IMG/VR virus record: IMGVR_UViG_3300032236_001850
Coordinates: 52,392 to 116,391 of that record
Source: a virus
DNA: 64,000 nucleotides
Reading direction: 5' to 3' (one strand)
In this document: piece by piece, positions 1,620 through 3,062 of the stretch
Layout: each line of letters starts with the position of its first letter
Position numbering within the stretch: position 1 is the stretch's first letter
The notes under the pieces: model-generated
Databases searched by the model: none
What the model was told of the DNA's origin: nothing
What the model saw: the letters and a program-made list of their open reading frames with translations, nothing else
Translations under genes and position numbers: made by a program

Positions 1620-1961
1620 ATGGCTTACGATAAGGAATACTACGAAAAAAACAAAGACAAATTCTCAGAGGCAAGAAAAAAATGGTATTATAAAGACAGA
1701 GCCAAAAAGATGGCTATGGGTTTAATAAAACCAAGACTCACTGAGGAACAGAAAAAAGAAAAAGCAGATAGCTACAGAATAAAAGCTGTTGAAAGATACC
1801 ACACAGATCCCGATTTTAGAGAGAAATGTTTAGAAAATTACAGCAAAAGATATCATTCGGATCCGGACTTCAGAGAAAGAAAAAAAGTGTATCTTAAAGC
1901 ATGGAGAGCAAAACGTAGAGAAAATAAGAAAAATAATGAAACAGCACATAGAGGAAATTAA
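1620..1961 (+). CDS. basic protein with two YHxDPDFRE repeats
   Basis: ORF track; internal duplicated motif RYHTDPDFREK / RYHSDPDFRER. Confidence 0.4.
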   Translation: MAYDKEYYEKNKDKFSEARKKWYYKDRAKKMAMGLIKPRLTEEQKKEKADSYRIKAVERYHTDPDFREKCLENYSKRYHSDPDFRERKKVYLKAWRAKRRENKKNNETAHRGN

Positions 1962-2421
1962 AAAAATCGCAATCGAAACATTTGCGATGAATCATGATTC
2001 CATCCATGGAATCCAACATTGGGAGGAAGTTCACGAGAATGGACTTATGTTATCGAGACAACCTGGTGTGGATTTGGTGGTTGTTCGCCTTTTTGCATAC
2101 CTACATGATTGTAAAAGAGAAGACGACCATCAGGATCCGGAGCATGGCGACAGAGCTGCTGATTTTGTTGTTTGGCTTAGAAACACCGGGAAATTACATT
2201 TTTTGAAACATGAACAATATCACAAATTATGGATGGCATGTTTACAACATCATAAAGGTGTAGTCGACACTGAGGATATCACTATCGGAGCTTGCTTTGA
2301 TGCTGATAGAATAGAGCTAATACGTTGCGGCATAACACCAAGAGAAGATCTAATGAGCACACCAATGGGAATTAGGATCGCTAAGAAGATGAACGAATTA
2401 AAAACATTTAAAGGACATTAA
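1936..2421 (+). CDS. HD-domain phosphohydrolase
   Basis: His...HD...D metal-binding pattern (IQHWEEVH, AYLHDCKR, HGDRAADF). Confidence 0.55.
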   Translation: MKQHIEEIKKIAIETFAMNHDSIHGIQHWEEVHENGLMLSRQPGVDLVVVRLFAYLHDCKREDDHQDPEHGDRAADFVVWLRNTGKLHFLKHEQYHKLWMACLQHHKGVVDTEDITIGACFDADRIELIRCGITPREDLMSTPMGIRIAKKMNELKTFKGH

Positions 2422-2477
2422 ATAATTTTTTTAATTCGAAATTAATCATTACATTTGCGATATAAAAATAAAAGAAT

Positions 2478-3062
2478 ATGGATTTGACAACCTACGTAGA
2501 CTGGTGCATAGCACAACACGATAACACCAACCACATGTACGACAAATATATTCCGTACAGTTTTCACCTGAGAATGGTAGATAGAGCAGCACAGCAATTT
2601 GAACACCTTTTGGATGATACTAAAGACATGCAAACTGGTAAATCTAGAGAGATTCTAGAGGGAAGCAGAATTGGATTCGTTTCTCTTAAAATGGCTTGTA
2701 GAAAAGCTTGCTGGGGACACGATACAATTGAGGACACAAGAACTTCCTACAACGATGCAGTTAACCATCTCGGTAAAGATGCAGCTGATATTGTTTATGC
2801 AGTTACCAACGAGAAAGGTAAAAATCGTGCAGAAAGAGCCAATGACAAGTACTATGCTGGAATAGTAGAAACACCAGGAGCAGTTTTTGTTAAACTTTGC
2901 GACCGTATAGCTAATGTTCAATATGGTAAAATGACGGGGAGCTCAATGTACGACAAGTACAAAAAAGAAAATGCTAACTTTGTTACTAAACTTGGTGGTG
3001 ACGACAAAGACCACAAGCTAGCACCAATGTTCGAATATTTGTTGAATCTTTTTAAAGATTAG
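2478..3062 (+). CDS. SpoT/RelA-type HD-domain hydrolase-like protein (Mesh1-like, putative (p)ppGpp or nucleotide hydrolase)
   Basis: motif CWGHDTIEDT matches the HD(x)ED signature of (p)ppGpp hydrolase domains; downstream KLCDRIANVQY resembles SpoT KLADRLHNMR. Confidence 0.55.
   Translation: MDLTTYVDWCIAQHDNTNHMYDKYIPYSFHLRMVDRAAQQFEHLLDDTKDMQTGKSREILEGSRIGFVSLKMACRKACWGHDTIEDTRTSYNDAVNHLGKDAADIVYAVTNEKGKNRAERANDKYYAGIVETPGAVFVKLCDRIANVQYGKMTGSSMYDKYKKENANFVTKLGGDDKDHKLAPMFEYLLNLFKD

Follow-up and report, generated by a model that had tools for sequence, protein, structure and literature searches.

A candidate stand-alone small alarmone hydrolase and a neighbouring YedJ-like HD protein in a probable jumbo phage

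Known small alarmone hydrolases (SAHs) hydrolyse (p)ppGpp and (p)ppApp. Two of them, from the virulent phages PVP-SE1 (a Salmonella phage; PbcSpo subfamily) and SSU5 (PaSpo subfamily), are stand-alone enzymes that neutralise all five tested toxic small alarmone synthetase (toxSAS) toxins, FaRel, FaRel2, PhRel, PhRel2 and CapRel, and a counter-defence role was proposed for them (Jimmy 2020, PMC7229694). The PaSpo enzyme of SSU5 is in routine use to detoxify CapRel (PMC9712102). MESH1 (HDDC3) and ATfaRel remove the pyrophosphate that toxSAS toxins put on the CCA ends of tRNA, which restores the tRNA (Kurata et al.). Here we analyse a 64,000-nt stretch of viral DNA, positions 52,392 to 116,391 of the IMG/VR record IMGVR_UViG_3300032236_001850, hereafter the window. 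Near its left end it encodes a protein of 194 amino acids (aa), predicted to belong with these enzymes and called SAH-like below, and just upstream a 161-aa HD protein. The two genes and the main motifs of the SAH-like protein are as follows.

1936..2421, + strand: YedJ-like HD gene (labelled the "HD1" protein), 161 aa, ATG start; a predicted HD phosphohydrolase from the open reading frame (ORF) list, profiles and model.
2478..3062, + strand: SAH-like gene, 194 aa, ATG start; a predicted single-domain HD hydrolase of the RelA/SpoT-homologue (RSH) type from the ORF list, profiles and model.
2709-2738, + strand: CWGHDTIEDT, residues 78-87 of the SAH-like protein; HD3 (His-Asp, metal) and HD4 (Glu-Asp, catalytic) motifs.
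2892-2924, + strand: KLCDRIANVQY, residues 139-149 of the SAH-like protein; HD5 (Asp-Arg) and HD6 (Asn) motifs.

Both ORFs are real genes and not chance ORFs, because they have many database relatives and confident AlphaFold2 models. The SAH-like family has at least 2,595 relatives in a collection of 5.8 billion proteins, the closest (97% identity) encoded on a 430-kb contig. The 161-aa protein has 73 relatives, one of which is 100% identical and lies on a 434,721-bp contig, from which the window probably comes. The models, built from family alignments, have a mean predicted local distance difference test (pLDDT) score of 93.6 for the SAH-like protein and 95.2 for the 161-aa protein.

Profile and structure searches place the SAH-like protein with RSH hydrolases. 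It matches the PHROGs family phrog_990, "metal-dependent phosphohydrolase", at 1.9e-22. The NCBIfam model spoT_relA matches at 1.1e-5 (24 bits), far under the cut-off of this 687-position model of long RSH proteins, and the match spans model positions 43-120, which is the hydrolase domain. A phmmer search of the PDB with the single sequence found PaSAH (9e-7, residues 57-173) and human MESH1 (6e-6). With a 55-member family profile, the PDB matches are RSH hydrolase domains only, led by Drosophila Mesh1 (3.8e-9) and PaSAH (1.4e-8) and followed by S. aureus Rel, MESH1, SpoT, RelSeq, Lmo0812 and RelH. The top 47 Foldseek matches of the AlphaFold2 model in the PDB are all of the RSH type. They include MESH1, PaSAH, RelH, Aph1, other SAHs, Lmo0812, Rel, RelA, SpoT and the Bacteroides (p)ppApp hydrolase 7SMG. 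The template modelling (TM) score to MESH1 and PaSAH, normalised to the query, is 0.61-0.66. The best viral structure matches are phage "phosphohydrolases" and "(p)ppGpp hydrolases". The model forms a single helical domain over all 194 aa, free of synthetase and regulatory domains, and has the all-helical HD fold of Mesh1 and SAHs. A sequence-only reading of this DNA had reported the two ORFs and both motifs at these positions and had described 2478-3062 as collinear with (p)ppGpp hydrolase domains, and our searches bear this out. It had also allowed for placement with dNTP triphosphohydrolases or another HD subfamily; the profile matched only RSH hydrolases, and no dNTP triphosphohydrolase, HD-GYP protein or nuclease is among the significant sequence or fold matches.

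The active site points the same way. Six motifs define RSH hydrolases: an Arg that stacks on the base (HD1), a His (HD2), His-Asp (HD3), Glu-Asp (HD4), Asp plus Arg/Lys (HD5) and Asn (HD6) (Bisiak et al. 2022, PMC9293644). In an alignment of 55 SAH-like sequences, which are 59-89% identical to the window protein, H30, H81, D82, E85, D86, D142, R143 and N146 are invariant. We assign H30 to HD2, H81-D82 to HD3, E85-D86 to HD4, D142-R143 to HD5 and N146 to HD6. The helix LPYxFHLRMV matches LPYLVHLGMV in PaSAH, and H30 is therefore the HD2 residue. By this assignment the family keeps five of the six catalytic motifs, all except the HD1 Arg, and H30, H81, D82 and D142 are the predicted metal ligands. 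In a profile-profile alignment (hhalign) of the family with MESH1, whose sequence is identical to that of 3NR1, the probability is 95.9% and the catalytic residues are in register, with these equivalences.

H81 of the SAH-like protein: H61 of MESH1
D82: D62
E85: E65
D86: D66
D142: D122
N146: N126

The region of E85 also aligns with the HDTLED motif of PaSAH, at the position of E74 (6Z3O E74Q), and KLCDRIANVQY aligns with KLCDRITNLQ.

The closest described proteins differ from the SAH-like family in several respects. PaSAH (PDB 6YVC, 6Z3N, 6Z3O), the best single-sequence PDB match, shares with it the HDTxEDT and KLCDRIxNxQ motifs, the LPYxxHLxMV helix, the fold and the lack of the HD1 Arg. However, it is a chromosomal protein of bacteria and only 21-24% identical. 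The phage family has its own insertion of about 25 residues after helix 2, and its HD1 loop contains an invariant Tyr/His cluster (H14, N18, H19, Y21, Y24; H19 is nearly invariant). MESH1 (PDB 3NR1, 5VXA, 3NQW) is likewise a single-domain protein of similar length (about 180-194 aa for the two). Drosophila Mesh1 is the best profile match and 5VXA the best fold match. MESH1 has R24 and K25 in the HD1 loop, unlike the SAH-like family, and the identity is 19-21%. The PVP-SE1 and SSU5 enzymes share the stand-alone form and the role proposed below. They were not retrieved by tblastn with SAH-like, PaSAH or MESH1 queries at E<=1e-3, which argues that the SAH-like family is a different and distant subfamily from these tested phage SAHs. 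With PaSAH or MESH1 as the query, tblastn retrieved other sets of phages that overlap little with the SAH-like family.

Cultured phages also carry SAH-like relatives. These are the Tenacibaculum jumbo phages PTm1, PTm5 and pT24 (29-38% identity), in which the protein is called a "phosphohydrolase", the Caulobacter phiCbK-like phages (gp249 in phiCbK) and Nodularia phages with HD proteins. All are large phages, and their proteins are true members of the family. The identity to the window protein is 38% over 80-92% of the protein for PTm1/PTm5 and about 30% for the phiCbK-like proteins, with TM scores of 0.71-0.82. Their gene neighbourhoods differ from that of the window. The phiCbK-like records are labelled "SpoT/RelA family (p)ppGpp synthetase I", "GTP pyrophosphokinase" or "HD-domain/PDEase-like protein", and the Joint Genome Institute (JGI) label on family members is "(p)ppGpp synthase/HD superfamily hydrolase". 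Iyer et al. 2021 (PMC7824862) had already drawn attention to jumbo-phage "HD-alarmone PDEases" and gave BBI90576.1 as an example. We rejected BBI90576.1 (325 aa; PTm1, locus L107, 18805-19782) as the PTm1 homologue. It is distinct from the true homologue, BBI90623.1, and gave no significant hhalign match to the SAH-like family and no PDB sequence match. BBI90576.1 carries a stretch, GDKRTKRTNVPYMNH, that resembles the RSH HD1/HD2 motifs.

We consider it likely that the 194-aa product is a stand-alone SAH of the RSH superfamily that acts on alarmones and/or pyrophosphorylated tRNA and so serves host takeover or counter-defence. Judging from the chemistry of the family, the enzyme would bind Mn2+ and strip pyrophosphate or phosphate esterified to a ribose 3' (or 2') hydroxyl. 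Likely substrates would be (p)ppGpp/(p)ppApp and/or the 3'-pyrophosphorylated CCA end of tRNA. The gene may be transcribed from a host-type promoter-like element of its own. It appears to lie in a mosaic accessory region, which in related phages also holds genes for tRNA/RNA repair, translation rescue and NAD+ reconstitution. The promoter-like element and the repair genes of this region point to a role in takeover or counter-defence, most likely by keeping alarmone levels low and/or by reversing toxSAS action.

A number of observations weigh against this assignment. Direct Pfam scans of both window proteins gave no match at E<=1, so the classification rests on family profiles, PDB matches and structure. 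In the Pfam HD_4/HD search proposed in the sequence-only reading, 34 of 55 close relatives match HD_4 (PF13328, the RelA/SpoT-type HD model) at E<=0.01 (best 2.4e-6), and the window protein itself has no match. The likeness in fold is moderate, with a TM score of about 0.65 at 19-24% identity. The loop ahead of PY..H contains no conserved Arg, and a conserved insertion at about residues 45-69 (HLLDDTKD..TG) is specific to the family and absent from Mesh1. With the Arg lost and the insertion gained, substrate choice may differ from that of canonical SAHs. SAHs are promiscuous, so the fold alone does not fix the substrate; MESH1 has been reported as an NADPH phosphatase as well as a ppGpp hydrolase, and was crystallised with NADPH and PAPS (3'-phosphoadenosine 5'-phosphosulfate). 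No toxSAS or other RSH synthetase was found beside the gene in Pfam scans of 1620-1961, 1936-2421, 3066-3947 and 4015-4263. Finally, the neighbourhood described below is suggestive context and not proof of coupling, because the lineages are related phages with clustered accessory genes.

The missing Pfam match, the lost Arg and the insertion would also fit a protein that has drifted to unrelated HD chemistry, such as that of a dNTP triphosphohydrolase, a cyclic-nucleotide phosphodiesterase or a nuclease, or one that is catalytically dead. We regard this as extremely improbable. The significant matches include no dNTP triphosphohydrolase, HD-GYP protein or nuclease, and the invariance of the metal and catalytic residues in 55 sequences indicates a maintained RSH-type active site. 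In a low-scoring alignment, the invariant Y21 occupies the position of the HD1 Arg, where PaSAH has a Leu. PaSAH is nevertheless active, and many SAHs have an Asp at this position (PMC9293644), so the loss of the Arg does not argue against activity.

The 161-aa protein belongs to a different HD subfamily. Its family profile matches 2PQ7 (1.1e-8) and E. coli YedJ 3GW7 (2.2e-6) in the PDB, then 3DJB, 2QGS, 3DTO, 2PJQ and 3B57, all structural-genomics "predicted HD hydrolases". Foldseek with the model gave 2PQ7 first (TM 0.73), followed by YedJ-like proteins, YpgQ, YqeK-like proteins and PgpH. Pfam HD (PF01966) is matched by 14 of 53 relatives. Among the NCBIfam models, TIGR00277 (HDIG) scores 20.8 bits (cut-off 27.6) and PRK10119 (YedJ) has an E-value of 0.15. 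The HD dyad is H57-D58, within YLHDCKR. H24, H28, H57-D58, R61, H70, H105, D122, D124 and R125 are invariant in 53 sequences, and the HD metal site looks intact. The H..H / HD..R / H / H / DADR series is collinear with that of 2PQ7, 3GW7 and 3DJB. However, YedJ-like proteins have about 210-240 aa, and the 161-aa protein lacks their C-terminal helical extension; the profile alignment covers only residues 13-137 of the 220-residue 2PQ7 chain.

In a collection that represents each bacterial or archaeal species by one genome, homologues of the 161-aa protein occur at 402 places, with about 40-49% identity, in Fibrobacter, Verrucomicrobiota, Planctomycetota, Spirochaetes, the candidate phyla radiation (CPR) and others. 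Most of the bacterial relatives have 152-195 aa (80 loci fetched). By these comparisons, the family is a cellular one that is common in bacteria, and the window protein is best described as a truncated YedJ-like HD phosphohydrolase of cellular origin, unrelated to the SAH-like protein. The generic HD phosphohydrolase of the sequence-only reading is thereby narrowed to the YedJ type. The gene context in the 80 bacterial genomes consists of lineage-specific housekeeping neighbours only and is uninformative on function; those in Fibrobacter are presumably MutS, endonuclease III and pseudouridine synthase. In other phages a homologue lies near a ligase and a Nudix gene, and such cases are too sparse to interpret. 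The YedJ family has no established substrate, and 3GW7 is still called "uncharacterized" (PMC11592144).

The adjacency of the two genes raised the possibility of a two-enzyme unit, in which both proteins would hydrolyse one signalling nucleotide in sequential or complementary steps. In the window they lie on the same strand with a gap of only 56 nt, and the HD metal site is intact in both products. The distribution of the genes speaks against such a unit. We fetched 80 viral loci with the SAH-like gene and clustered them with earlier loci at 85% identity, which gave 47 lineages. A hidden Markov model (HMM) search (E<=1e-3) found a 161-aa homologue within 10 kb of the SAH-like gene in one of the 47, the window's own. 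Conversely, the SAH-like gene is present in 2 of 15 viral loci of the 161-aa gene, both from the window's clade, and in none of the 80 bacterial loci fetched. Spacing varies as well. In the closest relative, L001 (430 kb), the SAH-like protein is 97% and the 161-aa protein 83% identical to those of the window, and four genes separate the two HD genes, one of them ferritin-like. In the relative L012, 0.8 kb lies between them, and the gap in the closest relatives ranges from 0.8 to 1.5 kb. The ferritin/Dps-like insertion in L001 indicates that the region is fluid.

The SAH-like gene also has an upstream element of its own.

2422..2477, + strand: intergenic promoter-like element with TAcaTTTG at 2450-2457, 28 nt before the ATG of the SAH-like gene, then an A-rich leader.

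The window, L001 and L012 share a nearly identical stretch of about 55 nt ahead of the start codon, despite a different upstream gene. In L001 it comes after a hairpin plus T-run. The low co-occurrence, the variable distance and this conserved element show that the two HD genes are not a module; their adjacency is a lineage-specific accident of gene order. A two-enzyme unit is therefore highly improbable and largely refuted by co-occurrence. Of the "pair" in the sequence-only reading, physical adjacency in the window stands and functional pairing falls. As a separate observation, the segment 9329-9901 of L001 holds the 190-aa ferritin/Dps-like gene and three small ORFs between the HD genes, then the terminator-like hairpin.

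The promoter-like element recurs. A 16-mer around TAcaTTTG has 7 copies in the window, where 1.8 would be expected; the genes that start at 13041 and 20749, for instance, each have one a short way upstream. Intergenic DNA is enriched about 4-fold for TAnnTTTG, and 15 of the motif's 37 plus-strand copies fall within the intergenic 10% of the window. Among the 47 lineages, 19 have it within 80 nt upstream of the SAH-like gene, typically at -27/-28 or -12. TAnnTTTG resembles the -7 promoter box consensus of Bacteroidota. This likeness suggests a Bacteroidota host, and independent transcription of the SAH-like gene that would be driven by the host polymerase. Inside a longer consensus, ACATTTGCRATATAAW, TAnnTTTG lies 12-45 nt upstream of several starts, for example at 2450-2457, 13020-13035 and 20720-20735.

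The wider setting is that of a large phage. The SAH-like loci were retrieved from the IMG/VR viral collection on contigs of up to 430 kb, and "huge phage" assemblies also hold relatives. A blastn search with 1600-4000 against 50,697 phage records gave no match, and a close cultured relative is therefore lacking. G+C makes up about 36% of the window, and nearly all genes are on one strand. The window also encodes Thg1, a phosphoribosyl-pyrophosphate (PRPP)-synthetase-like protein, a NAMPT-like protein, a Band_7 protein and an M42 peptidase. The carrier is probably a jumbo or huge phage of a Bacteroidota host. The gene directly downstream of the SAH-like gene is the following.

3066..3947, + strand: 293-aa gene, 3 nt after the SAH-like stop; weak match to PHROG 10081.

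It is probably co-transcribed with the SAH-like gene and lies next to it in the closest relatives only, namely L001-L003, L011 and L012. It has no Pfam or PADLOC match, and PADLOC likewise gave none for 1936-2421 and 2478-3062.

When all genes around the SAH-like gene in the 47 lineages were clustered without bias, several families recurred, as counted here.

Class II tRNA nucleotidyltransferase, 243 aa: within 10 kb in 15 lineages, within 3 kb in 10, directly adjacent (either side) in 6.
Band_7: within 10 kb in 13, within 3 kb in 10, directly adjacent in 1.
PRPP-synthetase-like (Adps-like): within 10 kb in 12, within 3 kb in 9, directly adjacent in 3.
cREC_REC: within 10 kb in 11, within 3 kb in 9, directly adjacent in 1.
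NAMPT-like (Namat-like): within 10 kb in 10, within 3 kb in 4, directly adjacent in 0.
RNA ligase: within 10 kb in 10, within 3 kb in 4, directly adjacent in 1.

SmpB and NADAR genes recur too. Within 1.5 kb of the SAH-like gene there is an RNA-repair/translation gene in 17 of 47 lineages and a gene for NAD or ADP-ribose (ADPR) metabolism in 7 of 47. Gene order is highly mosaic. The tRNA nucleotidyltransferase, RNA ligase, cREC and SmpB genes and those resembling NARP1, the phage NAD+ reconstitution pathway, hint at a counter-defence island. No synthetase family is among the recurrent neighbours. With no adjacent synthetase gene, a type IV toxSAS-SAH toxin-antitoxin module of the FaRel-ATfaRel type was rejected.

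These neighbours give some room to an enzyme specialised for RNA ends, which would clear damaged CCA ends of tRNA of 3'-pyrophosphate (or 3'/2',3'-cyclic phosphate). Its partners in this defence against toxSAS toxins (CapRel, FaRel2, PhRel2) or tRNA nucleases would be the short class II tRNA nucleotidyltransferase, RNA ligase and cREC. The tRNA nucleotidyltransferase is the commonest immediate neighbour, found both upstream and downstream, and cREC_REC, RNA ligase and SmpB genes recur nearby. The count of RNA-repair/translation genes within 1.5 kb, the restoration of pyrophosphorylated tRNA by MESH1 and ATfaRel, and two tRNA-like genes 1.2-1.5 kb downstream in the window fit as well. However, the tRNA nucleotidyltransferase lies 5.7-6.6 kb upstream in L001 and L012 and is not adjacent there; the equivalent place is beyond the left edge of the window. 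Proximity is also confounded, as many kinds of accessory genes cluster in this region and the lineages are related phages. Moreover, known SAHs carry out both reactions, so that there may be no separate function to distinguish. We judge such a specialised enzyme to be unlikely.

The tRNA-like elements lie in an 830-nt ORF-free gap (4264-5098).

4271-4327, + strand: 57-nt tRNA-like element with acceptor, D and T arms; a short linker replaces the anticodon arm.
4530-4654, + strand: 125-nt tRNA-like gene; its extra arm is long, and its anticodon loop contains an insertion of 35-40 nt.

They were detected by Rfam and the intron mode of ARAGORN only; in its default mode ARAGORN reported no tRNA for the window or for any of five relatives. 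The armless element has counterparts of 57-59 nt in L012 (12270-12326) and L008 (8923-8981). Their Rfam tRNA scores are 34-44 bits (gathering score 29), no CCA is encoded, and compensatory changes keep the acceptor stem paired across the window, L012 and L008. A covariance model of this form matches in these three only, so the armless mini-tRNA is no general companion of the SAH-like gene. The 125-nt element has counterparts in L012 (12526-12649) and L001 (11780-11906) and is 95% conserved among three relatives. The intron mode reads it as tRNA-Val(aac) with a 35-nt intron, an anticodon assignment that is doubtful. A strong hairpin (4498-4525) lies just upstream of it.

Other neighbours would suit an enzyme that acts on NAD metabolites, either a MESH1-like NADP(H) 2'-phosphatase or a phosphatase of phosphorylated ADPR. 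It would feed phage NAD+ reconstitution by the Adps-like and Namat-like proteins (NARP1) when host defences deplete NAD+. MESH1, with its reported NADPH phosphatase activity and its NADPH-bound crystals, is among the closest structural matches. Three lineages have the SAH-like gene directly upstream of the Adps-like gene and a fourth has it two genes upstream, and NADAR and Namat-like genes follow the Adps-like gene there. In 11 of 47 lineages the distance to an NAD/ADPR gene is no more than 3 kb. Accessory phosphatases are known from NARP1 operons (bioRxiv 10.64898/2026.01.28.702374), and alarmone-type HD phosphatases have been predicted to process ADPR products (PMC9503650). However, the published NARP1-associated phosphatase is a Macro-domain protein and not an HD protein (bioRxiv 10.64898/2026.01.28.702374), distances of 14.6 and 24.8 kb separate the SAH-like gene from the Adps-like and Namat-like genes in the window, and the association is weaker than that with RNA-repair genes. 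We find this role quite improbable. Taken jointly, a tRNA 3'-end repair component with the tRNA-like RNAs as substrates or decoys, or an NADP(H)/ADPR-phosphate phosphatase feeding NARP1, has a low probability next to the preferred reading of a phage SAH for takeover or counter-defence. The NARP1-associated phosphatase itself (Adpp, NARP1-AP), a Macro-domain ADPR-1''P phosphatase in the Adps-Namat operon, was rejected as a counterpart, since the SAH-like protein has an HD fold and a distant location.

In L013, L014, L036, L038 and L054 the SAH-like gene stands directly before the Adps-like gene, which is followed by genes for a NADAR-domain protein and a DUF3307 membrane protein. A LAGLIDADG homing endonuclease is sometimes inserted in the SAH-like/Adps-like/NADAR block. 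The arrangement with DUF3307 may be an extended NAD/ADPR-processing block.

A role of phage SAHs in disarming alarmone or toxSAS defences has been published before (PMC7229694). What appears to be new is modest. By sequence comparison, it is a divergent jumbo-phage subfamily that lacks the HD1 Arg, has a promoter-like element of its own and recurs near tRNA-repair and NAD-reconstitution genes. Provided that the fold correctly predicts the action of the enzyme, giant phages of a large clade, probably infecting Bacteroidota, would encode an eraser of alarmone or toxSAS signals of their own, and a counter-defence known from a few enterobacterial phages would extend to environmental jumbo phages. 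The finding leaves present views of phage-host conflict as they were. Its practical value is also modest: a well-conserved, easily expressed 194-aa candidate with a clear set of candidate substrates. The gene-neighbourhood map ties the gene to tRNA-repair and NAD+-reconstitution genes.

Several further features of these genomes were observed. The window encodes a Thg1-like tRNA-His guanylyltransferase (13925-14773, + strand). Just upstream of the region that matches the window start, L001 (3909-7111) carries a tRNA_bind protein, the tRNA nucleotidyltransferase, SmpB and a PTH2-like protein. Such a set of translation and tRNA-repair genes is typical of huge phages. The PRPP-synthetase-like gene (17081-18013, + strand; PHROG "ribose-phosphate pyrophosphokinase") and the NAMPT-like gene (27256-28941, + strand; PHROG "nicotinamide phosphoribosyl transferase") resemble Adps and Namat of NARP1, yet they are 9 kb apart and form no operon. 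A 1,839-aa protein (55083-60602, + strand) contains a DUF5122 beta-propeller and collagen triple-helix repeats and could be a fibre or adhesin. The G+C fraction of the final 4 kb of the window (60001-64000) reaches 0.44, compared to about 0.35 elsewhere.

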